Source: a virus. From it: a stretch of DNA of 64,000 nt. The notes below the pieces were generated by a model. That model had not been told where the DNA came from. It worked only from the letters and a program-made list of their open reading frames with translations, and did no database searches. The position numbers and the translations under genes were made by a program. Position 1 is the stretch's first letter. Every line of letters starts with the position of its first letter. Below, piece after piece: positions 1,554 through 24,857 of this stretch. The stretch spans positions 2,055 to 66,054 of the IMG/VR virus record IMGVR_UViG_3300027976_000028. One strand, written 5' to 3'.

Positions 1554-2255
1554 ATGCGCTTACGAGAATTTATACAACCATTAGAAGAACTTGCAACTGT
1601 AACTCACCGTAATGAGATGGACCGTCTCTTCAAACAAAACGGTTACAAAAAGATTGGTTCCGGTGCAGATGCAATGGTTTATAAGAAAGATAGCAGCCAT
1701 GTTATCAAAATCTTATTCCCAGAAGATTATTCACCAGCAGCAAAGGCAATTAGATCATTCACAACGTTTTATGAATTTGTTAAGGCTAATCCAACATCAC
1801 CGTTCCTACCCAAAATTTCTGAAGTAAACGAAATTGAAGTAATGGGTGAGGTTTTCACGCAGATCGCAATGGAAAAGCTAATGCCCTTAAAATCTGGATC
1901 TTTCCTTTTAGTCATTGTTTATCAAATAATCAGTGATATCGAAGAAGGTGGCGCGCCGGGGCCTAAAGGGGAAGGATTTAAGAACTTGCTATTATATCTT
2001 CAGAAACATCCAGCGAATTGGGATAACGACATCCCGTTCGACGATAGACATTATAACATGTCGCCGATTGCACAATCAATTCTAGCCAATCCCGCTAAAC
2101 TGAAATTCTACAGTGATTTTTATGATATTGCAGAAAAATTACACGCCACAGGTTTAGCACATCCCGATGGTCCTTTAGGATGGGATTTACACACCGAAAA
2201 TGTAATGCTTCGTGGTCAAACACCCGTAATCATTGACCCTTGGTTTATGAGTTAA
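1554..2255 (+). CDS. Protein kinase-like (Ser/Thr kinase fold) protein
   Basis: IGSGADAMVY glycine loop, VIK lysine, DLHTENVM catalytic loop, IIDP; start reassigned to ATG 1554 (MRLREFIQPLEE). Confidence 0.8.
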   Translation: MRLREFIQPLEELATVTHRNEMDRLFKQNGYKKIGSGADAMVYKKDSSHVIKILFPEDYSPAAKAIRSFTTFYEFVKANPTSPFLPKISEVNEIEVMGEVFTQIAMEKLMPLKSGSFLLVIVYQIISDIEEGGAPGPKGEGFKNLLLYLQKHPANWDNDIPFDDRHYNMSPIAQSILANPAKLKFYSDFYDIAEKLHATGLAHPDGPLGWDLHTENVMLRGQTPVIIDPWFMS

Positions 2256-2293
2256 TCACGCAGTAGGCAGCCTGCCCTTTTGCTAAATATCGT

Positions 2294-5200
2294 ATGAAAT
2301 CCCTGAACGAGTATTTAAACGAAGTTATTGCCCAACAAGAGTATGTATATCATGTGTCACATCTACCTAATCTTAAACTTGGGTTACGCAGTATAATTAA
2401 AAGTGGGTTACAGCCCTCTAAAGTTGGATATTCTGGACCCGGCGTTTATTTTGCATACAAGCCAGACGGCGGCTTCTACCATGTAGATGCAAGCGAAGCA
2501 ACTATGTTTCGTGCTAAATGGAAAAATCTTGTTGCACATTATGGTGTATACCCGCAAGCCCCGAATGGCATACAACGCGACGACGATGAAATCATTGTAC
2601 CAACGAGTGTACCCGTAGAAATGTTAGAAGTAGAATATAATCCCGGCGAATGGTGGGATGTAAAAAGTGCATTAGCAGCAGAAAATGGCCCAATGAACGA
2701 GGTTACCATTGACAACAAAGATGGTGCAGGCGCAGTCCCATACAATGCTGATATAGACTACTTTGGACTTCGCGTACAGATGAAGCCAAGTACATTCCTA
2801 CGCTTGGCCGAACCACTTGGCAAGCCACACGACCCGGAATTAGAAAAATATATGGCAGCGGGCGGTGCAACAGGCTCCCCATTTTTAGAAATAGCAATTC
2901 CTGAAGAATGGGATGTTGGCAATTTTAGTAAAGTTGCGCAGGTTAAACGTCACGAAGGTCGTAATCGTGCCACAATAACACAAAAGTTAGAAGGTGACAG
3001 TCCAATAGAAGTTCACCTTATACCACTTGGAGGATATCGTAATCGAGATTTAACTCCAGAGTTTATTAAAGCGTTAAGCGATGGTTTATTCGCAGAGAGG
3101 ACTACTCGTGTTGTAAATGGCCCATTGTTTACTGCAATGGTCGTAACTGAAGATGATGAAACTCTGCCTATGGCCGATAATCCAGAACATGTCCGCATGG
3201 CTGAGTTAAAGAGACTTATGGGTGCGTTTCCAAACTCAGCAGACTACATGTATAGTATCCCGGCGTATAAGCGGGCTCGCCTGCTATTCAACAAGGGCTT
3301 ACTCAAAGCGTCAAGACCTGAAATTGAGTTACTCCTCAAATTAACAACGTCGACTGGTGATCTTAAACCACTTAGTGAAGAAGAGGAATTAACTGAATTA
3401 TTTGAACCAAGCAATAAAGAATGGAAGTGGAAGCATCACTATAACACATCTGCTATAGCGTTATTTAAAATAGGCAAAATCCCATATATGTTTATGGCCG
3501 AAACATATACGCACCCCGATAGTCCAGAATCTGCGGGCATGTGGGATGTTGTTTTCAAAATCGACAAGCACTATAGCGGCTATACTGATCTCGAGGCCAC
3601 TTCATACGGAATCACTGGCTCTGGCAACTCTGCAGAAGTAATGGGAACGGTAGTAAACATCCTAAAGGATTTTATCAGCATATACAAAGAAACACTTCGC
3701 GGTATTACATTCGTTGCCAACGAAGATTCACGACAATCCCTATATGCTAAAATGGCACATAGATTATTACCAAATTGGGAATTCTATAAAGATGGCAAGG
3801 AATTCATATTATCAAAGCCAGAGGATAATGTAAATGAATCAGTGGTTAATGAAAGCCTAAGCCGCATTGCCTATCACTATACAAGTTTATCTAGTGCATT
3901 AAATATATTGACTACTGGGCAGTTTCAGCTTGCATCAACACTTGGTAGTGTTGAGGAGAAATATGCGCCTCAAGGGCATCATTACTTCATGAGCACTACA
4001 CGCTCTAGCAGAGGCGGCTATCACGACAGCAATGTAACAAAAAACTCGACAAGTGGTATATTATTTGCATTGGACGGCAACTGGTTTAATCAACACTACA
4101 AAGCAGGACCCATAGATTATTGGCAAAATCGTAATCAAAATCAAAGATTTAACGTCACGCACCACGAATCCGAAGACCGTATATTTTCGCGGACACCTAC
4201 TATTCCAATTGGCGGGATTACAGCGGTTCACGTATTCATGAAGGTAATGGATAATAAAGAACGGGACAATTACGGTGCAATGGCACCAGCTAATGCGCGT
4301 CAACTATTATTACGAGCAAAGACACTTGGCATTAAGGCATACCTATATGAAGATGTTACTGCATGGCACAATTTAGATATTAGAAAAACTGTACCTATTA
4401 CAAATAGAGAAACACTTCGCGGTCCCGATCTTAAGAAAGAACGTACATCATCAAAGCCCCGTGGATATTTAATGCCATGGATGGAATTGTTGCAAGCAAA
4501 AGAAGTGTCACAATTGTCTAAGGCTGCAGATCGCATTCGTTATAGTCTACAATATACATATGATGCTCAGAGTGCTATAGAGGGTTTAGCAAATAATTTA
4601 AGCAATGCCCGCAAGCCCGATTCAGGGGGCGATCGCGAAAATGCTGCGAAGCTAATAAGATTTATGCAACAGAATAAGTTGAACACTATTTCTGAACTTG
4701 TTAAGGCAATTGGGGACAAGTGGAAAGCTATTGCTGCCAAGAAACCCGCTAACGAAGTAATAGAATCAGATACCCCAATTAAACTTACAAGCAATGCAAA
4801 AGCTAAAGGTTGGATTGATAAAGTATACGCAAGGTATCCGCAGATGTTCCAACGCAATCATGTCATGCCTCTTGGCGGTGCGGGCAATGATCAACAGTTT
4901 GCTATGTTTGAACTAACACCAAGCTTCGCAAAACGTGATGCAGTGGAGGTAACATGGATACAAGCTTATCCAATGGGGCAAGGCGTAGGTGCAAGAGCAA
5001 TGAAAGAACTGCAAGCACTTGCAACTGCAGATGGCATTAGTTTAACATTATTCCCTTGGGACAAAGGACAAGTATCGCAGGCTAAATTGACAAAGTTCTA
5101 CAAAGGGCAAGGATTCAAGCCTACTGCCAAGGGTTCAAGGACCATGGCATGGAGTCCGATTACGGAATTGTTTGAACCGAGCACTAAAGACTGGAAATGG

Positions 5201-7027
5201 GAATTCCGTGGCAAATACACCGCCTCGGCGGTGTTTACTGTAGAAGGTATCCCGTATAAGTTTCATGCATCTACAGAGCCAGACCCAGATATTTACGGAA
5301 TATGGGATATTGAATTTACAATAGAAACTCCAAGACCGCCCGGTCGTTCAGTTAGATACAATCTATCGGGTACAGGTAACTCGGCTGCTGTAATGGGAAC
5401 CATAGTCGACATAATGAGGGCATTCCTAATTAAGTACAAGGATAACATCGGCGCATTGCAATTCTCTGCCGATGAAGTATCAAGGAAATCATTATATAAG
5501 CGAATGATTCAACGGTTATTGCCAAATTGGAAACTAAAGAGCTATCCTGGCGATATGTTCTCTATTACGCCGCCTGCGCTCCGCAAAAAAGTAATTAAGC
5601 CAACAGTTGAAACTGCAAGGAAAACTCTCAACGACTATCTTAACATTGTTATCGAAGACTTCAATTCAAATCCATACAGCAAAACTACACTACCGCTGGG
5701 TCCATATCGCGGACTAAGTAATCCACTGGACAATGATCATTCAGAATCATACGAAGCCTCGGAGTTATGGGATATAGTCGAAGATCAAATTGAAAAAGGT
5801 ATTAAACCAACCGTAATCGATTTTCCTATAAATCAACTTGAAGCTACACAGGATTGGTTAAGTAGTGAAGCAGGCGACGAAGCACTATTTGACGAATATA
5901 CAGATCATCCGGTTGTATTAGCATACGCAGCCGACAATTATATACTTGATGGGCATAATCGTATTGCCGCTGCAATTAAAAATAAACAAGTTAAAATACC
6001 AGTGTTTTTGTTTGATGCTGATGTGAAAGTAACAGAAGGTGAATCTAATATGAAAATTAGAGAATTGCTAATGAACGGAGGCTGGGCAAGTGACTTAACT
6101 TTTTCCACAGTCATCACACCAGCAGTAGTGCAAGAAATGGTAAAACATCTTGCGGAGTTTGAACAGAAATTCAATGAATGGGAAAAGCAGGGTAATATGG
6201 GATTAGAGATTAACATTGGCAAACCAGTGGGCTCGGGTACATATTATGAACGAGATCTTATACAAGATCCAACACGAGAATATGGCGATGTTGATGTTAT
6301 GTGCTATATTACAAGTCTCCCAGATGAAAGTGCTGCCCAACGCATCGCTGTTTATCGCACTGCTATTCAATCTTTCTGCCAACTCAATGCAAAATACAAA
6401 ACAGATAATGGCACTAATGTTATATTTGATTCAGCGGCAGGCCCCGTACAAGTTGATTTAGTTTACACCTTCCACGAACACGCAAATTGGGGACGAGCAT
6501 TAGCACCAGAATATAGGGTTAAAGGGGCTATTAATACAAGTTTAACAAGCGCAATGGCCGACGCCCTGAATCTTAGTTTTAGCTCTCAAGGTGTACAGGC
6601 AAAATTACGCAATGGACAGCCAGTAAGCTTCCGCCAAAGTAAAGATACGATACTACATATGGTATCAATTGATCCCGAGAACTGGGCAAAGGACATATAT
6701 AGTTTCTATTATGAATTGGCAAAAGGTGAAAAGCCAACATCGTTTCCCGGGGGACTTGAACAGCATAGCGGGATTAAAGACGAGCAACGGTTAAGTGACA
6801 TTGTATATGCTATCAAGAGTCTTGTAGCGGCCTTTGAGCAATCAATGATATTACCTCCAGATTTAATGAATAAGATTGCCGATATATTTGTGAGCAAAAT
6901 GGATGCACAAATTGGGTCGTCAAAGTACTTAACAGCTCAAACACCTGAAGCCGTCGCTAAAGCTGATAAGACTAAGGCTATGTTTATGCGCTACAAAGAA
7001 GAGATACCAAAGTTGCTTCTGAGCTAA
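2294..7027 (+). CDS. 1577-aa multi-module (polyvalent) protein: ART-like x2, ParB-like x2, repeated unknown domain x2, GNAT, nucleotidyltransferase
   Basis: YHVSH..GPGVYF..DEII; HEGRNRA; LFEPSxKxWKW repeats at 3398 and 5168; AYHYTS..YFMSTTRS; GQGVGARAM..LTKFYKGQGF; ILDGHNRIAA; VGSG..YGDVDV. Confidence 0.8.
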   Translation: MKSLNEYLNEVIAQQEYVYHVSHLPNLKLGLRSIIKSGLQPSKVGYSGPGVYFAYKPDGGFYHVDASEATMFRAKWKNLVAHYGVYPQAPNGIQRDDDEIIVPTSVPVEMLEVEYNPGEWWDVKSALAAENGPMNEVTIDNKDGAGAVPYNADIDYFGLRVQMKPSTFLRLAEPLGKPHDPELEKYMAAGGATGSPFLEIAIPEEWDVGNFSKVAQVKRHEGRNRATITQKLEGDSPIEVHLIPLGGYRNRDLTPEFIKALSDGLFAERTTRVVNGPLFTAMVVTEDDETLPMADNPEHVRMAELKRLMGAFPNSADYMYSIPAYKRARLLFNKGLLKASRPEIELLLKLTTSTGDLKPLSEEEELTELFEPSNKEWKWKHHYNTSAIALFKIGKIPYMFMAETYTHPDSPESAGMWDVVFKIDKHYSGYTDLEATSYGITGSGNSAEVMGTVVNILKDFISIYKETLRGITFVANEDSRQSLYAKMAHRLLPNWEFYKDGKEFILSKPEDNVNESVVNESLSRIAYHYTSLSSALNILTTGQFQLASTLGSVEEKYAPQGHHYFMSTTRSSRGGYHDSNVTKNSTSGILFALDGNWFNQHYKAGPIDYWQNRNQNQRFNVTHHESEDRIFSRTPTIPIGGITAVHVFMKVMDNKERDNYGAMAPANARQLLLRAKTLGIKAYLYEDVTAWHNLDIRKTVPITNRETLRGPDLKKERTSSKPRGYLMPWMELLQAKEVSQLSKAADRIRYSLQYTYDAQSAIEGLANNLSNARKPDSGGDRENAAKLIRFMQQNKLNTISELVKAIGDKWKAIAAKKPANEVIESDTPIKLTSNAKAKGWIDKVYARYPQMFQRNHVMPLGGAGNDQQFAMFELTPSFAKRDAVEVTWIQAYPMGQGVGARAMKELQALATADGISLTLFPWDKGQVSQAKLTKFYKGQGFKPTAKGSRTMAWSPITELFEPSTKDWKWEFRGKYTASAVFTVEGIPYKFHASTEPDPDIYGIWDIEFTIETPRPPGRSVRYNLSGTGNSAAVMGTIVDIMRAFLIKYKDNIGALQFSADEVSRKSLYKRMIQRLLPNWKLKSYPGDMFSITPPALRKKVIKPTVETARKTLNDYLNIVIEDFNSNPYSKTTLPLGPYRGLSNPLDNDHSESYEASELWDIVEDQIEKGIKPTVIDFPINQLEATQDWLSSEAGDEALFDEYTDHPVVLAYAADNYILDGHNRIAAAIKNKQVKIPVFLFDADVKVTEGESNMKIRELLMNGGWASDLTFSTVITPAVVQEMVKHLAEFEQKFNEWEKQGNMGLEINIGKPVGSGTYYERDLIQDPTREYGDVDVMCYITSLPDESAAQRIAVYRTAIQSFCQLNAKYKTDNGTNVIFDSAAGPVQVDLVYTFHEHANWGRALAPEYRVKGAINTSLTSAMADALNLSFSSQGVQAKLRNGQPVSFRQSKDTILHMVSIDPENWAKDIYSFYYELAKGEKPTSFPGGLEQHSGIKDEQRLSDIVYAIKSLVAAFEQSMILPPDLMNKIADIFVSKMDAQIGSSKYLTAQTPEAVAKADKTKAMFMRYKEEIPKLLLS

Positions 7028-7079
7028 TGAGCTAAATAGAGTACAATGATTTCATCATTAAATATAAAGGAAAATTAAA

Positions 7080-7358: not shown

Positions 7359-7360
7359 GT

Positions 7361-8077
7361 ATGTTGTTACGAGAAGTCATTGCGGTTCGCAAAGTTATCA
7401 ATGAAGGTGGAAATGTCTTTAAGGACAAGGATGGCACACCGCTGACTGATCGTATTCAACGTGCAGATGTAGAGCCTACAGTAAGATGGTTAGAGAGTAT
7501 CACGGGATACAACTTGTTTTCTCACTTGCTTGGTACAACGGGCAAGAAAGAGAGTTCCGGCGACATTGATATTGGAATGGAAGAGGTTGCAACAAAAGAA
7601 GACTTAGTAAATAAACTAACAGTTTGGTGCTCTCAAAATGACGTAGAGGCAGCAACATACATTAAAAAGTCCGGCATTAACGTACATTTTAGAACGCCAA
7701 TTGGCGGATCATCAGATCGTGGGTTTGTACAAACCGACTTCATGTTTGTTCCTAATTTAGATTTTGCCAAGTTTGCAATGGCAGCGGATCCGCATAGTAA
7801 GTATAGAGATATGTACAAGCATATCACGATGAGTTCTCTTGCAAAGCCGTTGAATATGTTATGGAACCCAACGACAGGTTTGTCTGATCGTACTACTAAG
7901 AAAGTAATATCTACAGACCCAGACAAAATTGCACAAACGCTATTAGGACCAAACGTTGATCGCACTGCGATTACAAGCGTAGAATCTATATTAAGAGCTC
8001 TTGAAAATGATCCTCAGAAGGACGAAAAATTAGCAGATGCAAGAGCAACTCTTGCAAAAACTGGGATAACAATTTAA
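7361..8077 (+). CDS. Nucleotidyltransferase (Pol-beta superfamily)-like protein
   Basis: LLGTTGKKESSGDIDIG (hG[ST]...DxD) plus VQTDFMF third acidic residue. Confidence 0.7.
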   Translation: MLLREVIAVRKVINEGGNVFKDKDGTPLTDRIQRADVEPTVRWLESITGYNLFSHLLGTTGKKESSGDIDIGMEEVATKEDLVNKLTVWCSQNDVEAATYIKKSGINVHFRTPIGGSSDRGFVQTDFMFVPNLDFAKFAMAADPHSKYRDMYKHITMSSLAKPLNMLWNPTTGLSDRTTKKVISTDPDKIAQTLLGPNVDRTAITSVESILRALENDPQKDEKLADARATLAKTGITI

Positions 8078-9538
8078 ATGCTATTACGACAAATTATACT
8101 TGAGAAAGAAGGATTCGATGCAAACGAGCTATTAGCATTTAAAGATGTCATTGCGTCGAAGATTAAGCAATTGCCGCAAGATGATGCCACTGCTAAAACT
8201 CTTAAAGAAATTGAGGAATTATTGACGCACGTTAATGCAGGCGGACGAATGGGTATGATAAATGGAGCATTGCACTCAATAAATGATCCAGCTGTATTAT
8301 CTTCACAAAAACGGTTATCACAGTACCTTGCAAGTATGGAAGTAAGTCCTGACGAACGCAAGGAGTTATTTCACCTATGGAAAACAGATAAGATTCTTAA
8401 CATTGATGTATTGTTGTCTAAAAAGAATGTTACCTTCTCGGAACTATTCAACGGTTACGATACTAACAAAGCTATTAAAGAGTTAGTAGATGACGTAATG
8501 GAAGTTGCTGATTTGGGGCAAGGCAAGGGCGAGTTTGGTCTTAATGTATTATCAAAGAGTGTTAGTAAACCAGGGTCGCATACAAACTTAGATCAAGATG
8601 GAGATGACAAAGCTAAGGGTGACTTAATTATTAAATACAACGGAAAATGGCGTAAGATTGAAGTTAAAACAACACAGGGCGGTGGCGCACGATTTGCCGA
8701 CCAAGAAGTGCGTCCAGCCGAAGGATATGAAGCTGCATCATCTGAATTAAATGCATCAGTAGAGAAGTTAAAGAGTTCATTGGTGTACAAAGAAGTATTC
8801 CCCAATGGAATGGCCAAGGGTTACGGTATGAACCTTGGGCAGGCTATTAATTGGTATCGCCATACTCAATTGCCAAAAGTAAAAGCAGATTTCCTTAATA
8901 AGGTTGATAACGTAGTAACATTGATTTTTGGCGGTAAGAAAGCTGATCATGCTAAAGTATCGGCTATTATAAAAGCCATTAAATCAGGTGATGATAATAC
9001 TGCGAAGCAACAATGGGCACAGGCGTGTTTTAATTACTACATTGGACAAAAGGATGACGAAGGTGTCCTGGCTATTAACTTGAATAGTAAGAGCATTATG
9101 TTCTATAGTACATCAGATGACCTTACTAAACAAGGTTTACGTTTCTCTGCTGATACAATTTACCTAACTGCTAAAGATGCACAGCGCGGAGCATATCCAC
9201 AAATTAGTGTTATCCCAACCACCTTTGGTGCTAATGCCAAAGCAGCAGGAGAAAAGAAAGCTGCCGACGCCGAGAAGAGTAGACTACGTGGATTAACACG
9301 GGCAGCGACTGCAAATCCAGTTGATGCACCAGCGCGCCACCCAACAGTAACTCGTGCCCAATTTAACAAAGACATGCTAGCATTCGCTACTAACTTTGCA
9401 CACCGTAAGAAGATATATGATCCGGGTCGTATTAAAGAACTTAGTGTATTTGCAGCTGATTTAATTGCCAGTGGCGCATCAATGACGAGCATTAGGAAGC
9501 AATTAAGCGGCCATGCTGCCGAGATGTTACCATCATAA
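8078..9538 (+). CDS. Putative PD-(D/E)XK nuclease-fold protein
   Basis: GKGEFGL..KGDLII..KIEVK motif. Confidence 0.55.
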   Translation: MLLRQIILEKEGFDANELLAFKDVIASKIKQLPQDDATAKTLKEIEELLTHVNAGGRMGMINGALHSINDPAVLSSQKRLSQYLASMEVSPDERKELFHLWKTDKILNIDVLLSKKNVTFSELFNGYDTNKAIKELVDDVMEVADLGQGKGEFGLNVLSKSVSKPGSHTNLDQDGDDKAKGDLIIKYNGKWRKIEVKTTQGGGARFADQEVRPAEGYEAASSELNASVEKLKSSLVYKEVFPNGMAKGYGMNLGQAINWYRHTQLPKVKADFLNKVDNVVTLIFGGKKADHAKVSAIIKAIKSGDDNTAKQQWAQACFNYYIGQKDDEGVLAINLNSKSIMFYSTSDDLTKQGLRFSADTIYLTAKDAQRGAYPQISVIPTTFGANAKAAGEKKAADAEKSRLRGLTRAATANPVDAPARHPTVTRAQFNKDMLAFATNFAHRKKIYDPGRIKELSVFAADLIASGASMTSIRKQLSGHAAEMLPS

Positions 9539-9553
9539 TTTAACGTCAATAAC

Positions 9554-9581
9554 AAAAAAGGACCATTATGGTCCTTTTTTT
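9554..9581. terminator. Bidirectional intrinsic terminator
   Basis: AAAAAAGGACCA-TTA-TGGTCCTTTTTTT between convergent genes. Confidence 0.85.
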
Positions 9582-10167: not shown

Positions 10168-11220
10168 ATGAAACTTTCTGAACTCCATACCATTATAGAA
10201 GATGAGGGCGGTGGTGCGTCTGCTGGTGCTACATCAAGTGGGGATATTGCCACTGTATCATTCCCGTTAATGACAAGGGGTAAGAACAAAAAAGCAAGAT
10301 TTGCAGCCGGTCGTAAAGCAGTTGGACTAAGTGGAAGTGTTACAAGTTACATTGGCAAGGGCGTGTATGAAGGTAGTGGCGCAGGGATAGGAAAGAAGCA
10401 TATTAGCCCAAGTGGAGTTAAAACTAACATGCCACCATCAGACGAGGATTATGAGATCAACTACGGTAAGAAAGGGGTTGCTGCGAAAGGCATCGGAGAA
10501 GCCCACACACTTGACAACAACAGTGTTATCTACAAATTGGATCCAACTGATCCAATGAACAAAACAGAGGTTATGGTGTTAGGCGGTGCAGGTCGTTATA
10601 CATTGTCCTCTCTGCGTAATAAAGCACGAAAAGAAGCGCAAGCATTAACAACCGATTTACAAGCTGAACATGGTGGTTCATTCCGCAGTGCAGCATATAA
10701 TATTAAACAATTAACAAATACACTGAATACCATCGTTGCTGCTTATAATGAATTAAAAAGAATTAGGCAGAAAGGCGGTCGAGGCTCCCGTGGCATTACA
10801 GACGAGGATGCAAATTTCGTCCGCGAACACCTTGAGACACTTGAACAATATGTTATTATTGTATCAGAAGCAAGGGGACTTACTGCTAATTTCAAAACAG
10901 CATTGAAAGAAGGCAAGTTAAACAAGATGCATACAGATGCAATATCGGGCATGTACCACCTTGGCATAGATCCGGGTTATGAGATGTACAGATGGTCAAT
11001 TCACACCGCTGGAAACAAAGGAGGACCAGACGCTGGACTTGGTCCAAAAGCAGGACCATTCGCCTTCGCATACACCGACGAAGAGGATGTTATGATCCGC
11101 AATGCAGTGAAAGCAATGGGTGGCAAAATTAAAACATTGTCCGCACGCGGTAGTATCGAGTCTGACGATGTCAATAAAGTCAGTGCAATTCCGGTGTTGA
11201 ATTGGAAGAAGATTCATTAA
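10168..11220 (+). CDS. Putative internal head protein with Glu-delimited modules
   Basis: MKLSELHTIIE leader; internal VYE/IGE/VSE/LKE sites; TATAAATA 4 nt upstream. Confidence 0.7.
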   Translation: MKLSELHTIIEDEGGGASAGATSSGDIATVSFPLMTRGKNKKARFAAGRKAVGLSGSVTSYIGKGVYEGSGAGIGKKHISPSGVKTNMPPSDEDYEINYGKKGVAAKGIGEAHTLDNNSVIYKLDPTDPMNKTEVMVLGGAGRYTLSSLRNKARKEAQALTTDLQAEHGGSFRSAAYNIKQLTNTLNTIVAAYNELKRIRQKGGRGSRGITDEDANFVREHLETLEQYVIIVSEARGLTANFKTALKEGKLNKMHTDAISGMYHLGIDPGYEMYRWSIHTAGNKGGPDAGLGPKAGPFAFAYTDEEDVMIRNAVKAMGGKIKTLSARGSIESDDVNKVSAIPVLNWKKIH

Positions 11221-11617: not shown

Positions 11618-14600
11618 ATGATCACACTTAAAATTCTGCATGAAGGCAAATTTCAGAAACAAATCTCCAGCCGCGTGCATGAAGGAATTGTCATTGAGCA
11701 ACTAACAAGGTATAAAGGACTTGTTGACGAGATTCAATATTCCGGAGAGTTAACTGAAGGTGCAAGAGAAGTAATGCAGCGAGTTGCCAAAAAAGTAGTA
11801 CCAGCAGCTCTCGCAGCAGGAATGGCGATGGGCACACACGGAGCAATGGCGCAAAATAATCCGCATTACCCCGGCCTAAACAAAAGCATTGGCCAGCATG
11901 TATCTGATATCTTTAGCCCCAACTACAATGAAATACAACGGCAACGCCAGTATGAAAGGCAAACACAGCAACGCGAATGGGATGCTAAACAGAATGAAAT
12001 TCGCCAAGCCCGCGTGCGTGATGCAAGAAATTCTGGTCGTGATGCCACTGGACAGCCGCGTGGCAATGTAAAAGTATATGACCAAGCACGCCGTTCAGCT
12101 GACGGCAAGTACTTTCTGTTGTATGACATGGATGATCGCATCACACGGATTCCCGTCAACGGTACGGAGTATATGGAGGCTGATTCTCAACGCCTCCCTC
12201 ACTATATTGCACCAAACGGCTCGGTATATTATGTACGGAGTCCAGCAGCAAATGCGCAACCAACAGAGCAAATGGTAGCAGATGGACTTGGGGCAACACC
12301 AATGATACCAGCAAGTGGTACTGGTGCAGAAAAGCGAGCAGGCGGAGCAGCAGTGGCCGGAGTAGGTAGTACAGGTAGTGTTGGTGTTGCTCCTAAAACA
12401 ACACCTGCGGCCGCTATTGCCGCGGCCGGTATAAATCCACTTGATGCCGATGACGAAGTTATTTCAAATCCAGATGGCACAACAAATTTAAGTATTAAGA
12501 ACGGCGAACTTGTCATTGATAAGCCCGGTGTTAACGAAGCAAAGGGGTTAGCCAAGAAAGTTAAAGTTGTTAAAGGCGAACACGCTAGTAAGACAGGCTA
12601 TATTCGCCAAATTAAACATGGTGCATTTAAAGGTGCTCCGAAAACATACTATATAGATCTTGAGGATGGCACGCAAGCAAATAACATACCCGCTTCGTCA
12701 TTACGTTTAGTCAAAGATGCGCCAGTAACCGAAGGCGGCACATCAAATGATCTACAAGCAATATTAGATCAATACTCTGAGTCGTATGCAGACTTTAAAG
12801 AAGGTGGTGACTTAACGGATAATGACGCATTCTTCCAGGCACTATTTGATTATTTTAGCAACTCTGGCGATATGCCTTATGGTGTTGCCAAAGCACGCGA
12901 TGGAGATCCTGTCCAATGGATCACAGATAGATTAGATGATTTATCGGGTATGGGCGATAAAGTAGCAGAAAGCGACCCAAGTGGACTTATGCACGCCGCA
13001 AAAACAATGAATAACGAATGGCGCATTACAGCAATGATGGATGATGGCAAGGTAAAGAAATTCCGAGTTAGAACACAGAGTGCAAGAACAGCACAGGAGA
13101 AATTTAAGAAAATCCATGCCACCGCACAAATTCAAAATGTTGAACGCATCGCCGAATCACAAATTGAAGGGACGGCACCAGTCAACGAGTTTTACGATTC
13201 AAGTATTGATAGAAATGATGATAGCTATGGTCCCGATGATTTGCATCTTTATATCAATGTCGCTAAAAAACTTGATATGAAGAAATACAAAACAGAAACT
13301 GCACATACTCTAATTTCCAAAAAAATGGCAGGATTAGTTGCGACAGTTGATGATGACAAGGTTACCTACGCTTATCAAACTGCACAAAAAGAGCAAGGGT
13401 TGCCTCATCTATTAGGCGAAGCCGATTTAGCATTTGATGCTGACGATACACTGTATACACTCACTGATACCTATCGCGATATCATGTCATCTGATGCGTA
13501 CGATACTGACAACAAGCAACAAATTGGATTGTTGTATGATATGTTAAGGGATCCATTAATGGCAGGGGATGAAGATGAATATTATAAAGTTCACGCTTAC
13601 TTACACGCAAAGTACCCAGACGCAATGGACGAACTATTAAGAGCAGCAGACCACCTAGCTCAAGGACCGCTATCAGAAAACCCACTATCACCAACCACTA
13701 GATTCCGTAGTATTCATGGCAATTACTGCGGTACCGGTAATCGTGGTGGTATGCCAACTGACAAGTTAGACCGTGCATGTTTCCATCACGACGTAGGTTA
13801 CAAAAAATCAAGAGAGTTGCCAGATAAAGACGCGGCGCTTGCTGCAAGAGTTATCGCAGATACTCGTTTCATGGATAGGGTGAATAAGATTCAGCATGAT
13901 AAAAGCTACTCGGCTTCAGTTAGATTTAAAGCCAGGATATTTGGCAACTATTTTAAGATAAAGAACAGAAATGCAGTTCCAGTAGGTGTTATTGAAGGCA
14001 CACATGATTACGCTAAACAGTTCACGAGTATGATGGACAAAATCAAATCAAAGAAAATGGTCACTGACCGTAGCACCGGCGTTGAGTATGATCCCGAAGA
14101 GGAATTTCTCAAGCTGTTACAGCAACATAAAGCACAATTTCAAGGAATGGCTGCAATTGAAAAAGCACAGAAGAGAGGTGTAGCAGAATCATTAAATAAA
14201 GATAGATACGACCAAGAGCCCATTGATCAACTTGACGATCAAATAAGTGACATTCTGCTTCGTGCTTATGAGAAACACGATAATCGAGATGATGTCATTG
14301 CAGCAGCATGGCCGGCTGCAAAGCAAGCAGCACAAGAGTTGAGTATTGATCCGACGGGCAAAAGCTTTCATACCGTTTGGAAATTGGCAATTGGTAGCGA
14401 TGCTGAGTACGCAGATGAAAATCCAGCAATGGCAGACACTACAAAGCGGCTACAAGATCCAAATGATGGTAAAACTGCCAAACTAAGAGCAAGCGGCGAT
14501 AAGAAACGCGACGGTCACCAATCTCAATCATATGGATATGTCCAAGACATTCCAGATATTGATGCAGATGATGTCTTGGCGATAAGTAGTGCTATGAAAC

Positions 14601-14663: not shown

Positions 14664-16808
14664 ATGAAATTCTTTACAGAAATTAAAACAGTTAGTGAAG
14701 CATCGGTTGCTGCAGGCCCACGCACCAACGTTGAAGAAATGTTCAACCAGGACACATATGCTGGTAATCCTGGTGAGTTTGATAAAAGTGACCCACATGC
14801 CAAGCCCAAATTGGCACCAAAGAAGAAAAATCCCAACGATGGCAAATTTGTTCAACATGGCGCAAAAGTTCCCCGTGGATATACAATGACTGCTCATGGG
14901 CGGGTTGTTAAAGAAGTGGCCAAAGACGGCCAGGTTGATGAAGGCGGACAATTCAGTTACGGTGCAAAGGACCCAAAGAAGGGCAGCCAAAGAGAATTAA
15001 GCGCAAAGGCAAACAAAGATGCCAAGAGTAAGTCAACACCAATCGAGCCCAAGGATCAAATGGTTGGCATCGCCAAGGTTACGAAAGTTAAAGAAGGACT
15101 CGCTGATGATTTCATGGCATCTATTGACAAGAAGAAATTCCCCCAGGCACGCATAGTTGGTAATGTTGATGCACAGAAAAAAGAGCGTGACGAGATGATT
15201 GCAAAACGCACCGCTGATAATGCAAACAAACCAACACCCGTTAAAGGTCCCGGCGATTTAGCAGCTGGCTTTGGGCAGAATAAAGGCTACGGTCAGGGTC
15301 GGTACATGGGTGATTCTAAAATCAATGCTGCAAGTGCAGTTACCGAAGCAGGTGGCGAGAAGAACTATGGTGTTCGCTACAAAGTATTCGCGAGTAAAGA
15401 AGGTAGACTTACTACAAAAGAATATTGGACAACATCGTCTGAGAAATTAGAAAGAGCTGCAACGAAGATTGAGGAATTGGGTAACTTCCACTCTATCGAC
15501 GGGTATAGCTATCCTCCTGAACCACAGGGCATGGCAGAAGGTGATCAAAGCAAAAGTGCATCTGCCAGCCGTGCAAAAGAAGCACACGAGCAAAACCTTG
15601 ATGCAGCACATAGGGAATTGATGCAGCGTGATGCAGATGGTGAGGATATGAGTGGATATCATGTCAATCCCCGTACATACAAAATTCAGAAGCAGCTACC
15701 GGGCAAAAAGTGGACGCAAGAAGAACAGCGGGCGCATATGATTGATAGAATGCGTAATGAAGGATTAGAGGAAGCCAGCGTCATGACATCGGGTCACAAA
15801 GGATATGACGCCATGCTATCAATTATGAAAGCAGCCGCCGCCGGTCGTGCAGCCACATTTACCATTGGCGAAGAAGAACTTACATTAGATTACAACGAAG
15901 CTACATTCTTAGCAGGAAAATACAAGGCATTCCTAAAAGCAGGTAGACAAGAAGAGTTCCTGAAGTATATGGAAAGTCCACGGCTGTTTGATCGTTTAAT
16001 GTCACAGTTGCGCACGATGATTGATAAGCAAAAGAACTTCAAAGGTTCTGTACAAGGCGATCGTCAAGTGCCCGGCGAGAAAAGCAGTCCTTTTGAAAGT
16101 GTTACCGAAGGGCATGTGGGTCCAACGCATAAAGATTGGGCATCTGCTGTTCAACGGGTTAAACAAAACAAGTTTAAAACAAGTGATCTTGTAAATTCGG
16201 TACAAAGTGTACCATATAAGCATCTTGCACAATTAGCACGAGATTCTGGACTCACCCCATCTGACGAGATGTTGAAACATGAGAACAAAAGTAAAGTAAA
16301 AAATGTCGCCGAAGGGCACTGTTCTCCTGGTGACAAAGTGAAGATTGATAATCCAAGTTCAATCCATCATGGAAAGACAGCCACCGTTGTTTCTCACAAT
16401 AAAGAAACTGATAAGACCATTGTTAAGCACTCTGGCGGCAAAACAATGAGTGTTGACCATATGTATCTTGAGAAAATTAAGGCCACTAAGAAGATCAATG
16501 AACTTAGCCCAAAGACACTTGGCTCGTATGCTAAGAAGGCATCAAGTTCAAGCGACGAAAGAAGCAATTCCAGCTTATCGTCACGCGCCGCCTACAAATT
16601 AGCAAACGATGAAAGAAATGATGACGGAGACGAAGACGATCATAAGTCATTCATGCGCTCAAAGGGAATTGCAAAAGCTGTTGATAGATTGACCAAGGAA
16701 AGTCCCTCATTGAAAGAAGGGCAATACTTCTGCCTAAGAGACAATGTTGCCAAGGTAATCCCAACCGGTTATAAGTTACTTGAGAGTGGCTTCATTGCAA
16801 GGAAATGA
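14664..16808 (+). CDS. 714-aa modular, charged putative internal head polyprotein
   Basis: MKFFTEIKTVSE leader; about 12 [LIVM]xE sites incl. INE-LSPKTLGSYAKKA; start reassigned to ATG after the upstream TAA. Confidence 0.7.
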   Translation: MKFFTEIKTVSEASVAAGPRTNVEEMFNQDTYAGNPGEFDKSDPHAKPKLAPKKKNPNDGKFVQHGAKVPRGYTMTAHGRVVKEVAKDGQVDEGGQFSYGAKDPKKGSQRELSAKANKDAKSKSTPIEPKDQMVGIAKVTKVKEGLADDFMASIDKKKFPQARIVGNVDAQKKERDEMIAKRTADNANKPTPVKGPGDLAAGFGQNKGYGQGRYMGDSKINAASAVTEAGGEKNYGVRYKVFASKEGRLTTKEYWTTSSEKLERAATKIEELGNFHSIDGYSYPPEPQGMAEGDQSKSASASRAKEAHEQNLDAAHRELMQRDADGEDMSGYHVNPRTYKIQKQLPGKKWTQEEQRAHMIDRMRNEGLEEASVMTSGHKGYDAMLSIMKAAAAGRAATFTIGEEELTLDYNEATFLAGKYKAFLKAGRQEEFLKYMESPRLFDRLMSQLRTMIDKQKNFKGSVQGDRQVPGEKSSPFESVTEGHVGPTHKDWASAVQRVKQNKFKTSDLVNSVQSVPYKHLAQLARDSGLTPSDEMLKHENKSKVKNVAEGHCSPGDKVKIDNPSSIHHGKTATVVSHNKETDKTIVKHSGGKTMSVDHMYLEKIKATKKINELSPKTLGSYAKKASSSSDERSNSSLSSRAAYKLANDERNDDGDEDDHKSFMRSKGIAKAVDRLTKESPSLKEGQYFCLRDNVAKVIPTGYKLLESGFIARK

Positions 16809-19470: not shown

Positions 19471-20337
19471 TTACATTACATAAATATTGCCCACGCATGA
19501 GTTTAGGACATCATCAAACATACTACCCATATCCATTGACAATGCATGGCTTGCATTGGCCCGGTCAGTATCGTTTCTAAATTCTGGATTCAAGTTCATG
19601 AACCGTGTTGGGTTGCCCCATGCCTTACGCCCGTATGTTAGGTTCATTGGAATTGGATTTAATGTGATATGGCCATCTTTGAGGTATTGTGCAAACATTT
19701 CATACATGAACTCGTATGGTCGTTTAATTAAATTACTGCGGCTACTCTTCTGTGTGCCAATTGCATTAAACAATGCATTATATTCCGCAGTTTGATCATA
19801 GTTCATTCTATCAGATCCAGTTCCGTATACGCCACTTTGCTTCTTTCCATAGCAATCAGCAAGTGTGTTATTAACCGTCGAGAAAAAGTGCTTCTCTGCT
19901 TCTTTCCAGTCGCCCCATTTGCGACCACTACCTGCCCTGGGACCATCATTAATAGCATTAATAGCATGTCCAAATCTATGCATCATTACCCAGGGAGTCA
20001 TCATTACTTTGGCTTCGCCACTATTCCCAACAAACACTACTGTAATTGCATCATTGCTATCTTTTAGAATCTGGGTAGCAATATCTGTTCCAAATATCTG
20101 GTCAAGTATGTTAGTATCAACTTTACCTATTTCAGGGTACTTGCCTGTGCCCGTTAGATTAGAGAAAAACAATCTAAAATCATATGGGGTATTTTCCAGG
20201 AACTTTGCAGTCTTTAATTGGTTAGTTGGATGAGGCACAAGTTTCTTATCAACACCGCGGAATGGTCCAGGTTTAGAGAAATCTCCAAGCGGCTGAAAGT
20301 CTGCCAATGGTGCTTCGGTTATGTCTTTAATTTTCAT
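19471..20337 (-). CDS. Putative internal head protein with a zincin-like HxxxH motif
   Basis: MKIKDITE leader; PWVMMHRFGHAI; TAAATA 5 nt upstream of ATG. Confidence 0.65.
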   Translation of the reverse strand: MKIKDITEAPLADFQPLGDFSKPGPFRGVDKKLVPHPTNQLKTAKFLENTPYDFRLFFSNLTGTGKYPEIGKVDTNILDQIFGTDIATQILKDSNDAITVVFVGNSGEAKVMMTPWVMMHRFGHAINAINDGPRAGSGRKWGDWKEAEKHFFSTVNNTLADCYGKKQSGVYGTGSDRMNYDQTAEYNALFNAIGTQKSSRSNLIKRPYEFMYEMFAQYLKDGHITLNPIPMNLTYGRKAWGNPTRFMNLNPEFRNDTDRANASHALSMDMGSMFDDVLNSCVGNIYVM

Positions 20338-20345
20338 ATCGATAT

Positions 20346-21400: not shown

Positions 21401-21636
21401 TTATAACCTGTAATTTCTGGCTTTTCGAACCAGAGTTTGAACCACGCATCTGTTCCGGGTTTAATATTCTGTTCACGTTGGATTTTACCTAGATTCTTTG
21501 ATTCTATTTTTGGTAACGGAGTTTCACGCCCCATTCTTACTGCGTCTAATACTGATGGATCAATATATGCATCTGGTATAGTGGGATCGATTTGATTAAA
21601 ATCAGAAGCGACAAACTTATACTGTTTCATTATCAT
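21397..21636 (-). CDS. Hypothetical protein
   Basis: 79-aa ORF coupled to neighbours; NIKPGTDAWFKLWF. Confidence 0.65.
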   Translation of the reverse strand: MIMKQYKFVASDFNQIDPTIPDAYIDPSVLDAVRMGRETPLPKIESKNLGKIQREQNIKPGTDAWFKLWFEKPEITGYK

Positions 21637-21842
21637 TCTGATTCAGTAACTGGCACTCCAGCGAGTTCGCATATACGGTTTGTATCAAGTTCGTCTCCTT
21701 CTTCTACGGTTTCAACCGTATAAGCCGTACCTCTTGCGGTAGAGGAATTGGCAAAGCCCGCCAACACCATAATACGGCTTAAATCCGGTACTTCGGATAC
21801 ATTAATACTACCATGTCCTTCATTTATTATTTTATTTGTCAT
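21633..21842 (-). CDS. Hypothetical protein with a short INE leader
   Basis: MTNKIINE-GHG; coupled ORF. Confidence 0.55.
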   Translation of the reverse strand: MTNKIINEGHGSINVSEVPDLSRIMVLAGFANSSTARGTAYTVETVEEGDELDTNRICELAGVPVTESE

Positions 21843-22021
21843 TTTGTTACCTTCTTTTGGCCATCTTTTAATGGTGATGTAGGGTAAAACTTAGCAAGCA
21901 TGTCTTTCATCGTATGTGTATTCACATCCACGCTAAGGGCGGTGGACCATCGTGGATCCTTTGCCTCGCTAGCATTGCGTGGAATATACCCACCGGATTC
22001 GCTCAATTCTTTAATCTTCAT
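21839..22021 (-). CDS. Small putative head protein
   Basis: MKIKELSE-SGGYIP leader; AGAGG SD in the hairpin arm. Confidence 0.65.
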   Translation of the reverse strand: MKIKELSESGGYIPRNASEAKDPRWSTALSVDVNTHTMKDMLAKFYPTSPLKDGQKKVTK

Positions 22022-22471: not shown

Positions 22472-22577
22472 AATAATTTTTCCTTTGTTAATGTACTTAC
22501 TAGTGGTTTCTACTAGTATATTTACCTTGCATCGCAGCAGAGTTTGCCCATAAGCCTGAAATAAGCTAAATATATGT

Positions 22578-23168: not shown

Positions 23169-23230
23169 GGTATTATGGACAAATTGATTCAATTAGGTGA
23201 AATTAGAGTTATTCTCAACTGGAACCACTG

Positions 23231-23425
23231 TCAATAATTGCCCTTGATGCTCAGCTGTAAATTCCGGGCTGCTCTAAATACATCTTCTACATCTGTAAAC
23301 TCTGATGGATTTTCTTGCATTGCAATGGCCTCATCAGAGGACCGCGCCATGACTATCTTCGTTGCACCACCACTGCTCATAACGGTCCACCTAACCAATG
23401 GTGCCGGGCTTCTTGGTTGCGTCAC
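23231..23425 (-). CDS. Small ORF, possibly the frameshifted C-terminus of the amidoligase
   Basis: Overlaps the last 35 nt of 23391..24857 in another frame; no clear SD. Confidence 0.35.
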   Translation of the reverse strand: MTQPRSPAPLVRWTVMSSGGATKIVMARSSDEAIAMQENPSEFTDVEDVFRAARNLQLSIKGNY

Positions 23426-24857
23426 GTTGCAATTTTACGTTCTTTAGCAGACTTTTTAGTCCATTAACGGAAAGCTCGCCAGCAGTAAATCGTGCAAAAT
23501 ATGCAATCGGATCATTGATATCTTTTGGTCCCAATAATTGATATAGCTTCTTTAGATATTCTTGACGATATTTTGTCGGATCAAGTGCTGCATCAAGTGC
23601 AACAACATACCTTAATAATGTAGGTTCAATTTTATCATAATATTTATTTAACCAGTCTCCGCCTGGCGCACGAAATTCGATATATCCATCATGGGTATTA
23701 ATTGTTGTATACTTTTGTGTATTGCCGCTATGGATAGCCTTTGTTGCAAATTCACTTAAATGCTCTTTCATCCGTCCTAATACTGCCGCTACATCTGCTG
23801 GACTATCGCGCATTTTTTGTTTAATTATCCCCATTGCTGATTTTGCATATGTATTGCCCTCTCGTCCAAACGATGCGATTATGTGCTCGTTGCCCATTAG
23901 TAATGCCAGTTTAATGTAATCTAATTTTTGGATACTATACTCGGGCAGGCTAACATTTATGTGTAATCCAGTGCTAGCATTTGTATAACATTTCATACTG
24001 GAACTGGTTGCCCATGCTTTTATCTTAACTAAATCGAGTAATAGCTGCTTAAATGGCAATGGTGGGCTAACAAACTCTAATCCACTTTCATCGCGATTAT
24101 CGGGTTGCAAGCTGCCGTCGGGCTCAATAATATAGGTATTAGCCTCGCGCTTTGCCCTATGTGCATCACCACCGTCATGATTAACTGGCCGCCCTATCAT
24201 AGTGCTAAATTCGTCAGCAAGATACGCAATGTCTAAGTCGCCTTCATCGTCACGAGTATGTTCGGTGTAGTAGGGCCACGACACACCGAAACTATTTTCA
24301 ATGGGTCTCATTGAGTTGTAGTTATCGCGTATCCACTCTCTTTCGGTGGTATCGTTGTGATTGTCATCGTGCCACGTGTTATTCCAATCCTCATACGCAC
24401 TGCGATAATGGCGATTTGAAACTCCGATTGCTGTATCTACGCTTGCTTGGATTTCATCGTCTGACGCTGCTGGATCAGCATCCCTGAAGTATGCCGTTAC
24501 TACTTCTTCTTTTTCTAAAGCCCAGTCATCGTTTTGTTTATCACCGAGCCAATCTAAGTACTCATTTTCAAGTTTATCTTTAACATCACGCAATGCATTT
24601 CTACCACTCTGCCCACCTTCATCAAAGAATCTAATAACATCGTCTATACTATTTGGTCTTTCGTCGTAACTATAATCAGGTTCACTATCATAATAATCGT
24701 CTAACCTGCCGTTAATGCTAATGCCCGGTACAATCATTTCAAATTCCATGCCAGCTGTGGCATTAATTTTGGAGGCTAACATACGCAAGCTACTTGGTGA
24801 CATGTTAAATTCGTTAAGTTGGATTGCTGTAAACGGGTAAATATCTTTAATTCTCAT
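23391..24857 (-). CDS. Putative amidoligase (COOH-NH2 ligase type 2) with a capsid-targeting-like leader
   Basis: AGMEFEM..IEPDGSL..GLEFVSPPL..TNASTGLHINVS..IEFRAPGG. Confidence 0.8.
   Translation of the reverse strand: MRIKDIYPFTAIQLNEFNMSPSSLRMLASKINATAGMEFEMIVPGISINGRLDDYYDSEPDYSYDERPNSIDDVIRFFDEGGQSGRNALRDVKDKLENEYLDWLGDKQNDDWALEKEEVVTAYFRDADPAASDDEIQASVDTAIGVSNRHYRSAYEDWNNTWHDDNHNDTTEREWIRDNYNSMRPIENSFGVSWPYYTEHTRDDEGDLDIAYLADEFSTMIGRPVNHDGGDAHRAKREANTYIIEPDGSLQPDNRDESGLEFVSPPLPFKQLLLDLVKIKAWATSSSMKCYTNASTGLHINVSLPEYSIQKLDYIKLALLMGNEHIIASFGREGNTYAKSAMGIIKQKMRDSPADVAAVLGRMKEHLSEFATKAIHSGNTQKYTTINTHDGYIEFRAPGGDWLNKYYDKIEPTLLRYVVALDAALDPTKYRQEYLKKLYQLLGPKDINDPIAYFARFTAGELSVNGLKSLLKNVKLQRDATKKPGTIG

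Follow-up and report, generated by a model that had tools for sequence, protein, structure and literature searches.

Candidate T4-type capsid-targeting leaders on large enzymes and polyproteins of an uncultured jumbo phage

We analyzed a 64,000-nucleotide stretch of viral DNA (hereafter the window; positions 2,055 to 66,054 of the IMG/VR record IMGVR_UViG_3300027976_000028), in which eleven putative late genes encode proteins that begin with a short leader ending in a hydrophobic residue, any residue and Glu. We consider it likely that these N-termini are capsid targeting sequences (CTS) of the phage T4 type, which would be removed by a gp21-like prohead protease and would load enzymes into the phage head. 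Since the tag is found on eleven unrelated proteins, including multi-enzyme chains, the phage probably injects a set of enzymes together with its DNA. The evidence consists of the leaders, which do not occur at random, are conserved throughout their families and are disordered in structure models, together with the T4-type head module of a relative and the homology between leaders and the internal junctions of a polyprotein.

Occurrence and composition of the leaders

The eleven leaders had been proposed in a first-pass annotation of the window. All eleven start codons and peptides were verified at the coordinates and strands given in Table 1, where genes are named after the position of the start codon. 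In each of them the leader ends with [LIV]-x-Glu at residue 8-16, the hydrophobic residue (P3) being Val in 14664. This terminal feature was present in all seven large genes of the + strand, from 1554 to 16808. [LIV]xE occurs at 1.4% of positions, and the chance for a protein to have one with Glu at residue 7-16 is P = 0.135; the same feature was found in 11 of the 74 genes located at 25-64 kb, which is the background level.

The head of the leader was analyzed by scanning all six frames of the 71 kb contig for the strict pattern M-[KRL]-[LIFVM]-x-[DEQ]-[LIVF], with at least 45 codons following. Eight hits were obtained. Seven of them are true N-termini among the eleven (MRLREF, MLLREV, MLLRQI, MKLSEL, MKIKDI, MKIKEL and MRIKDI), and the eighth lies inside the 1577-amino acid (aa) open reading frame (ORF). 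Based on the N-terminal composition of the other genes, 0.27 matches would be expected in 90 genes (P(7 or more) = 1.3e-8), and the pattern was found in 7/11 leaders against 0/79 control genes. The four leaders that do not match the strict pattern are those of 2294, 11618, 14664 and 21842. The leader of 2294 matches the T4 register instead, and those of 11618 and 14664 are backed by conserved orthologous leaders.

Beyond residue 20, no similarity among the eleven proteins was detected by BLASTP (E <= 0.01), and the shared leader is therefore not due to paralogy. Moreover, equal leader residues are encoded by unequal codons (CGC/AGA for Arg; TTA/CTT/CTA for Leu), which points to conservation at the protein level. 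A bias was also observed in the residue following the site: of the 96 [LIVM]xE sites in the eleven cargo proteins, 36 (38%) are followed by G, A or S, compared to 39 of 216 (18%) in the other genes of the window (Fisher P = 2.4e-4), and the bias is strongest in 11618 and 14664. The density of [LIVM]xE is at background, 1.74 per 100 aa in the cargo proteins vs 1.73 in the other genes.

The N-terminus of a further gene at 16805 (MIMELTVLTVDQLQE) resembles a twelfth leader but was not counted, being part of a conserved domain in relatives. This gene (16805-17434, + strand) encodes a GH19 (chitinase class I type) endolysin and terminates the + strand cargo block.

Similarity to T4 leaders and the head module of a relative

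The capsid targeting sequence carried by T4 internal proteins was reportedly described by Mullaney and Black in 1996. In T4, the CTS of IPI, IPII, IPIII and Alt is removed by the prohead protease gp21 (PMC3012670, PMC9026906), which cleaves after L/I-x-E, and for packaging the first 10 residues of IPIII are enough (PMC9026906). Mutagenesis in T4 assigned targeting mainly to residues 4 and 7, and processing to residues 8 and 10 (PMC9026906). The T4 leaders and sites, taken from the sequence record NC_000866, are MKTYQEFIAE/A in IPII and IPIII, MKTFKEF...TITE/A in IPI, MELITELFDE/D in Alt, MAKINELLRE/S in gp24 and ...FLTE/AEIGG in gp23 (here and below, the slash follows the Glu of the site); the residues after the T4 sites are A, A, A, D, A and S. 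A Glu-to-Asp exchange at P1 is reported to block cutting in T4. The residue classes of the four critical positions are kept in the leader of 2294, which has L, Y, L and E at positions 4, 7, 8 and 10. In the other leaders, a hydrophobic pair three residues apart is located one position earlier than in T4 and is followed by [LIV]-x-E.

A search for a gp21-like protease, suggested in the first-pass annotation, was negative on the contig of the window, a fragment, and positive in the relative G003 (L013; 177.7 kb), which has orthologues of 10168, 11618 and 14664. G003 contains a Peptidase_S77 gene (E = 1.3e-26) in a head module with the T4 gene order: portal, gp67, gp68, gp21 protease, scaffold and capsid. 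The protease (212 aa; G003 79191-79829) shares 30% identity with T4 gp21, and the GE-x-HP and GVSSRG motifs of the two align. The scaffold protein (370 aa) contains 25 [LIV]xE sites, that is 6.7 per 100 aa, vs 7.4 per 100 aa in T4 gp22. With gp23, the capsid protein shares 38% identity, and its sequence YLTE/T lies a few residues before the conserved N-arm, the T4 counterpart being FLTE/A. The protein at the gp67 position (68 aa) starts with MRFNDLQKASDEIEKE, and the one at the gp68 position is acidic. The presence of a T4-type head module together with cargo orthologues suggests that the T4 specificity very probably applies in this lineage; for the exact phage of the window, T4 cleavage specificity is predicted from this relative. 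Two further G003 proteins, encoded at 92759-93406 (+ strand) and 150235-150666 (- strand), start with MKISDL.

Conservation of the site in three cargo families

In three cargo families, [LIV]-x-Glu is located directly before the first conserved residues in 98-99% of the stand-alone metagenomic homologues. The first is a family of ADP-ribosyltransferase (ART)-like proteins, for which a 191-aa piece of the 1577-aa polyprotein (residues 515-705) was used as the query and 120 stand-alone proteins of ~290 aa were found. In 117 of 118 of them, a leader of 8-16 aa ending in [ILV]xE abuts an invariant SLSR-x-x-YHYT; the leader consensus is M-[RK]-[IA]-x-[ED]-[IFVL]-[ILV]-x-E. Leaders of 8, 9, 12, 15 and 16 residues all retain both the head and the terminal [ILV]xE, that is, indels alter the length of the leader, yet its two ends stay. 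For module 521-824 of the polyprotein, the top 19 Foldseek matches were all DarT or Tpt1/KptA, with probabilities of 0.9-1.0 and E values of only 2e-3 to 0.1, and the family has the invariants H-Y-T, S-T-T and E-x-E; the modeled structure thus supports a DarT/Tpt1-like ART fold. This family (P0001-P0120, homologues of 3836-4408) is abundant in metagenomes, occurs on contigs of up to 364 kb and has no Pfam domain. Its DarT/Tpt1-like fold is followed by a helical C-terminal half, and the invariant residues are H17, S56-T58-R59 and E110-x-E112-D-R.

Among the 112 homologues of 7361, which form the nucleotidyltransferase (NTase) family, 110 carry a leader of 4-46 residues that ends in [LIV]xE before GGN[VI]FK. 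In the family of 20337, the site is located 9 or 14 residues ahead of a GDFxKPGPF anchor and is retained in 81 of 83 stand-alone members, and also in 33 of 35 fused members, in which several different modules (about eight by eye) stand upstream. The retention of the site in independent fusions argues for selection. More than 600 hits were obtained for this family, in which the invariant H120-R-x-G-H124 stands at the place of the zincin HExxH. Its members (P0242-P0360) often occur in fusions, in which a GNAT-like, DUF6934, ART-like or VTIDN module precedes them.

The AlphaFold models of the ART and 20337 families have predicted local distance difference test (pLDDT) values of 87 and 85 (84.6 for 20337). 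In both models residues 1-7 are below 50 and the first β-strand begins directly after the Glu (residue 11 in 20337). Such low values suggest that the leader is a floppy extension, as expected of a removable tag.

The 1577-aa polyprotein

The protein encoded by 2294 has the module order ART-like, VTIDN/ParB-like, DUF6934, DarT/Tpt1-like ART, GNAT-like (unproven), DUF6934, ParB-like and C-terminal NTase-like (unproven). DUF6934 was detected twice (30.1 bits, above the cut-off), and the nuclease/ParB-like and C-terminal NTase-like labels were assigned by eye only. A GNAT assignment for residues ~825-960 was not accepted (Pfam E = 0.26). The modules are found elsewhere as separate leader-bearing genes, whose N-termini align exactly on internal [LIVM]xE sites of the polyprotein (Table 1), and the junction string ITELFE is near the T4 Alt leader, LITELFDE. 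RsoM2USA_385 (MQTFKQFLSE/D), from the Ralstonia phage RsoM2USA, also matches module 2, with its own site six residues upstream of the junction. This phage and the KVP40-like Vibrio phage K566 are cultured. The alignment of stand-alone N-termini at the junctions indicates that the polyprotein arose by fusion of leader-bearing genes, the cleavage part of the leaders surviving. The leader-like sequence at residue 1253 is possibly a relic of a fused gene, or an internal start that would give a separate 325-aa product.

In this protein only the junction sites are informative, and not the overall [LIVM]xE count. The chances that the polyproteins are processed internally, with cleavage at the junctions, appear about even. 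We tentatively propose, with a little less than even confidence, a polyprotein cargo in which one leader brings in several unrelated effector modules in a row, to be separated by the head-maturation protease in the closed capsid at the retained leader-tail junctions. With modules shuffled among stand-alone genes and genes of two or seven modules, throughout a large lineage of uncultured jumbo phages, this would constitute a combinatorial, sequence-predictable injected arsenal, including nucleic-acid-type ADP-ribosyltransferases and phospholipase A2.

Individual cargo genes

The cargo genes, their leaders and the junction sites of the polyprotein are listed in Table 1. The first-pass annotation had assigned a range of enzyme activities to these genes. 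Phospholipase A2 and amidoligase (Pfam cut-offs), ART (Foldseek) and NTase (the Atlas) were retained, the kinase is weak, and the GNAT and zincin-like assignments were dropped.

Table 1. Cargo genes of the window and junction sites of the 1577-aa polyprotein. Boxes are given with their distance upstream of the ATG; a slash follows the Glu of the site; counterparts are aligned homologous N-termini.
Feature	Position (nt)	Strand	Length (aa)	Leader or site (nt)	Box	Product, counterpart or remark
1554	1554..2255	+	233	MRLREFIQPLEE (1554-1589)	TATAAATA, 4 nt	kinase-like
2294	2294..7027	+	1577	MKSLNEYLNE (2294-2323)	(T/C)AAATA, 4-5 nt	polyprotein; T4 register; counterpart at residue 10: L001_4561, MLIRELFE/SNSPGMYVYH
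7361	7361..8077	+	238	MLLREVIAVRKVINE (7361-7405)		nucleotidyltransferase fold; leader abuts invariant GGNVFK
8078	8078..9538	+	486	MLLRQIILE (8078-8104)		
10168	10168..11220	+	350	MKLSELHTIIE (10168-10200)	TATAAATA, 4 nt	
11618	11618..14662	+	1014	MITLKILHE (11618-11644)		11/16 [LIVM]xE sites precede G/A/S
14664	14664..16808	+	714	MKFFTEIKTVSE (14664-14699)		15 [LIVM]xE sites, 10 preceding G/A/S
20337	19471..20337	-	288	MKIKDITE (20314-20337)	ATAAATA, 5 nt	invariant HRxGH
21842	21633..21842	-	69	MTNKIINE (21819-21842)		ORF; weakest member
22021	21839..22021	-	60	MKIKELSE (21998-22021)	CTAAATA, 18 nt	ORF
24857	23391..24857	-	488	MRIKDIYPFTAIQLNE (24810-24857)	CTAAATA, 4 nt	amidoligase domain
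2294, E136	2699-2701	+		PMNE/VTIDN		P0349, FITE/VTIDN
2294, E371	3404-3406	+		LTELFE/PSNKEWKW		L002_4878, MLIRELFE/PNKPWQW
2294, E520	3851-3853	+		VVNE/SLSR		118 ART homologues, ...E/SLSR; Vibrio phage K566_0173, MKKFNEFANELAE/A (…ELAE/A)
2294, E824	4763-4765	+		EVIE/SD		L006_3034, MLIRDLIE/ND
2294, E961	5174-5176	+		ITELFE/PSTKDWKW		L002_4878, as at E371
2294, E1257	6062-6064	+		MKIRE/LLMNGG		internal leader-like sequence, residue 1253 (6050..7027); Shine-Dalgarno-like GAAGGTG 8 nt upstream of in-frame ATG (6035-6064)

The orthologues of the cargo genes keep the leader pattern although the remaining protein is down to 40-70% identity. The product of 1554 is a weakly indicated kinase: it matches Pfam Kinase-PolyVal (E = 2.4e-4) with 21.6 bits, under the 27-bit cut-off, and PHROG 15752 (T7 0.7-type kinase) with E = 1.2e-7. 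Its orthologue L006_2370 has the leader MKIYDILYE/Y. The assignment of 7361 as a Pol-beta-type nucleotidyltransferase is supported at the level of structure models by an Atlas match to DUF6267/NTP_transf_2 clusters (TM 0.92), in which the alignment begins at residue 7-16. For the 486-aa protein of 8078, no match was found in Pfam or PHROG, and a related-locus scan of IMG/VR gave no relative. The orthologues of 10168 (in L001, L002, L004 and L006) retain the leader and the promoter-like motif, the leaders including MKLRELIMMSE/D and MKLRELIVME/D.

A phospholipase A2 module in 11618 is supported by the match to Pfam Phospholip_A2_4 (25-26 bits vs the 23.9 cut-off), and the match to LPD24 is weak (18-20 bits vs the 27-bit cut-off). 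Orthologous N-termini are MIRIRLINE/G and MIRIQLIHE/G. Nucleotides 11618-12370 encode a conserved N-domain of ~250 aa, which contains a hydrophobic Ala/Gly-rich stretch and a Gln/Arg-rich coil. Relatives were found at L001:10888, L002:10888, L004:10861 and L006:11252; the C-terminal parts are wholly different among relatives, and the total lengths in the family are 496, 919, 957, 1014 and 1417 aa. This layout resembles that of polymorphic effectors, with the phospholipase match in the copy of the window only. The protein of 14664 may, judging by its sites, be cut into small pieces; its counterparts, identified by gene order and without a BLAST match, begin with MKFSDLGDKGPDFIRE and MKFTDLGDKGPEFKLQSVAE/G. 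The assignment of 24857 as an amidoligase is supported by Pfam Amidoligase_2 (23.4 bits vs a cut-off of 22), and its orthologues begin with MKLRDVNPQQPVLAEQQLDE/INMSPSS (head MKLRDV, end QLDE).

A zincin-like fold for 20337 was not accepted. The Atlas gave leads only (0.88-0.89), the best Foldseek match against the PDB had E = 0.29, the lethal-factor matches had a probability of <=0.15, and the best Z in a wide VIA-align comparison was 3.9.

Promoter-like boxes and genomic context

A T4-late-like (T/C)AAATA box is located 4-5 nucleotides before the ATG of 1554, 2294, 10168, 20337 and 24857, and 18 nucleotides before that of 22021. Such a box opens each cargo block, the remaining cargo genes being downstream in the same operons, and the relatives L001, L002, L004 and L006 share this arrangement, with the same box 4-7 nucleotides before the ATG. 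From its sequence, it is a promoter-like motif only. At the boxes at 1539-1556, 2279-2296, 10153-10170, 20338-20352 (- strand), 24858-24872 (- strand) and 22565-22580, no Shine-Dalgarno sequence was seen. With a box ending 4-5 nucleotides from the ATG and no Shine-Dalgarno sequence, little or no untranslated leader would remain on the late mRNAs.

The source of the window is an IMG/VR contig of 71,024 bases without a terminal repeat. Its CheckV completeness is ~21%, which corresponds to a genome of roughly 340 kb. No match to the cargo block was found by megablast among 50,697 phage records, and six related IMG/VR contigs were found via the orthologues of gene 10168. The contig encodes a ClpA/B-like ATPase that is 41-42% identical to homologues in the jumbo phages Atu_ph07, Phosso and PA5oct, as well as ClpX, DnaJ and a gp44-like clamp loader. 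Based on these four genes, the contig fits "group 2.2" of the T4-related jumbo phages (Iyer et al. 2021; PMC7824862), that is, the window fits a piece of a jumbo T4-like phage. The chaperone-type genes are located at 31930-34149, 34188-35027 and 60308-61534, all on the - strand, and encode a ClpA/B-like double AAA+ ATPase, a DnaJ with its C-terminal domain and a ClpX with a zinc finger, respectively. The genes run on the + strand until 17.4 kb and on the - strand beyond. A collagen-like Gly-X-Y tail-fiber protein (29858-30703, - strand; PHROG tail fiber families, E down to 2e-24) belongs to a likely tail-fiber gene block at 26-31 kb.

Proposed mechanism and alternative explanations

In the mechanism that we propose, the leader would consist of two parts. 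The first would be an amphipathic head, M-basic-φ-x-acidic-φ or, in the T4 register, M-K-x-φ-x-E-φ (φ, hydrophobic residue), which by analogy with T4 IPIII would attach the freshly made late protein to the scaffolding core while the prohead grows. The second would be the terminal [L/I/V]-x-Glu, cut by a gp21-family prohead protease after closure of the shell. The mature protein would then be free in the head and exit with the DNA at the next infection. The predicted cargo is mostly large and enzymatic: DarT/Tpt1-like ART modules, a Pol-beta-type NTase, a phospholipase A2 module, an amidoligase and a kinase-like protein. The longest of them appear to be polyproteins, whose modules are separate and leader-bearing in related phages and are linked here via retained leader tails; one leader probably imports several modules, which the protease probably cuts apart within the capsid. 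Each of these steps, from targeting and cleavage to packaging, ejection and enzyme action on the host, is what we infer for these proteins.

It is important to mention several observations that weigh against this mechanism. The contig of the window, itself a fragment (71 kb, ~21% complete), has no Peptidase_S77 and no scaffold or capsid gene; the head module is known from the relative only, whose cargo orthologues are 50-74% identical. The earlier proposal of a T4-like capsid-targeting leader on unrelated late proteins, many of them enzymes, is supported at its core by the head module of the lineage, the conservation, the disorder and the junctions, and falls short as to a gp21 gene on the contig. 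In one exception, MRFRQIITTEE in an orthologue of 10168, P3 is not hydrophobic. The small ORFs 21842 and 22021 gave no homologue or family and are unconfirmed members. One of the G003 proteins starting with MKISDL is cytidylyl/adenylyltransferase-like (…AGRFHPFHIGH) and has no hydrophobic-x-Glu site nearby, so that the head alone is not a fully specific marker of cleaved cargo. The site density of the 1577-aa protein is at background (1.77 per 100 aa vs 1.73 in the controls). Finally, φ-x-Glu abuts the first conserved residues of each domain and is kept in the NTase family even with leaders of 4-5 residues (MLTE, MILNE), so that the domain itself, and not cleavage, could account for part of this conservation.

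One alternative is that the leaders are real prohead-protease propeptides, but that they sit, in some or most cases, on components of the head core or of assembly and not on effectors for injection. Such proteins would be scaffold-like or DNA-condensing peptides, or would be degraded and expelled in maturation, with enzyme domains that are incidental or act in the producing cell. In 14664 and 11618 there are indeed many [LIVM]xE/G/A/S sites at a spacing of 30-90 aa, as in gp22 and gp68, which are cut to small peptides (PMC9026906). The proteins of 10168, 8078, 21842 and 22021 have no enzyme signature, and the gp67-like core protein of G003 carries the same head motif. Nevertheless, at least five cargos have folds typical of injected or conflict proteins (ART, NTase, phospholipase A2, amidoligase and kinase), the modules are shuffled combinatorially as in polymorphic effectors, and T4 proteins with short N-terminal propeptides remain in the head and are ejected (PMC9026906). 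We regard this alternative as unlikely.

A second alternative, which we consider quite improbable, is that φ-x-Glu is the structural start of the domain and that the head serves a purpose other than capsid targeting, either translation initiation on leaderless or Shine-Dalgarno-less late mRNAs, or as a tag for phage ClpX/ClpA-type unfoldases. The first purpose would suit the several cargo genes that have a late-promoter-like box 4-5 nucleotides from the ATG and no Shine-Dalgarno sequence, and the second would suit the phage-encoded ClpX, ClpA/B-like ATPase and DnaJ; the very short NTase leaders and the non-cargo-looking G003 enzyme described above also favor such an explanation. However, the motif is conserved in the protein and not in the codons, and it is also found on operon-internal genes without a promoter, whereas gene 22578 (MSTINIQ), with a late promoter and no Shine-Dalgarno sequence, lacks it. 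In addition, coincidence would have to explain why three unrelated folds all start with φ-x-Glu, the tail of the leader persists at internal junctions, which play no part in translation initiation, and the leaders closely match the experimentally dissected T4 CTS.

A chance resemblance among short K/E/I/L-rich N-termini in an AT-rich genome, to which the commonness of [LIV]xE (13.5% of proteins) might lend itself, is effectively refuted by the excess of the head pattern over expectation and controls and by the conservation of the leaders across hundreds of homologues.

Significance and comparison with known systems

If the capsid-targeting explanation is correct, the injected repertoire of widespread uncultured giant phages would be readable straight from sequence, and the tagged late proteins would be candidate first-minute host-takeover or anti-defense factors. 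The role of the prohead protease would extend from the trimming of leaders to the release of several effectors per precursor, and the T4 "expression-packaging-processing" toolbox would gain natural, very large cargos. Hundreds of metagenomic members fall into the three families, which lack useful annotation: Pfam gives no domain for the ART and 20337 families and only an occasional DUF6267 hit for the NTase family.

The first-pass annotation had regarded the leaders as an undescribed system. This view could not be kept, because in T-even phages one CTS is known on unrelated internal proteins and on the 682-aa enzyme Alt (PMC3012670, PMC9026906, PMC12373910), and injected polyvalent proteins were already predicted in 2017 (PMC5512222, in the passages considered here). 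The size of Alt indicates that a large enzyme can be CTS cargo, and the hypervariable ip loci of T-even phages were recognized by their leader (Repoila et al. 1994, as cited in a passage of PMC12373910). In the literature searched, we came across no description of CTS-type leaders on large enzymes or polyproteins for group 2.2 jumbo phages.

The similarity to the T4 CTS includes a short N-terminal leader, about 7-19 residues being the range used for the T4 type, with hydrophobic residues three apart and an L/I-x-Glu end, cargo that is otherwise dissimilar, a late-type promoter-like motif, and a gp21-family protease with the T4 head-gene order in the lineage. T4 Alt likewise belongs to the ADP-ribosyltransferases, and the ITELFE junctions resemble its leader, MELITELFDE. 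On the other hand, the register of most leaders described here is shorter by one residue (M-basic-φ-x-acidic-φ), with leader lengths of 8-16 aa, and the cargo consists mostly of large enzymes, whereas that of T4 consists of basic inhibitors of 8-20 kDa. Polyproteins with leader-tail junctions inside the chain, which here reach 1577 aa, are not described for T4, and the lineage is of the jumbo "group 2.2" type, with only 30-38% identity in gp21 and gp23.

In phiKZ-like giant phages (phiKZ, 201phi2-1 and SPN3US), inner-body and ejection proteins are processed by a gp21-related prohead protease (PMC10052503, PMC9026906). There too, many head-internal proteins are trimmed after Glu by the same protease superfamily, several of them at multiple sites, and are ejected. 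However, their motif is S/A(/G)-x-Glu, the propeptides are long and without a common short tag, and the proteins are unrelated to those of the window. A test for S/A/G-x-Glu was negative, as P3 is L, I or V in 11 of 11 leaders, 117 of 118 ART members and 110 of 112 NTase members.

Polyvalent proteins, as predicted by Iyer, Burroughs, Anand, de Souza and Aravind, are injected multi-enzyme proteins; in the passages of that paper considered here, disparate enzyme domains (ART, kinase, NTase, ParB-like) are combined in large proteins that are predicted to be packaged and injected with the DNA (PMC5512222). At least two disparate domains per chain, the polyvalent criterion, were found in 2294 (two DUF6934, an ART fold and further modules) and in 11618 (phospholipase A2 plus others), and no Pfam model of the polyvalent families reached its cut-off of 27 bits (Kinase-PolyVal and LPD24, see above). 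The same passages differ from the present case in proposing processing by built-in peptidase domains (e.g. MPTase), and contain no shared N-terminal address or prohead-protease sites between modules (PMC5512222). Compared with these known systems, what is new here is the size and enzymatic nature of the cargo, a polyprotein with retained leader-tail junctions, and the shuffling of modules across hundreds of metagenomic proteins.

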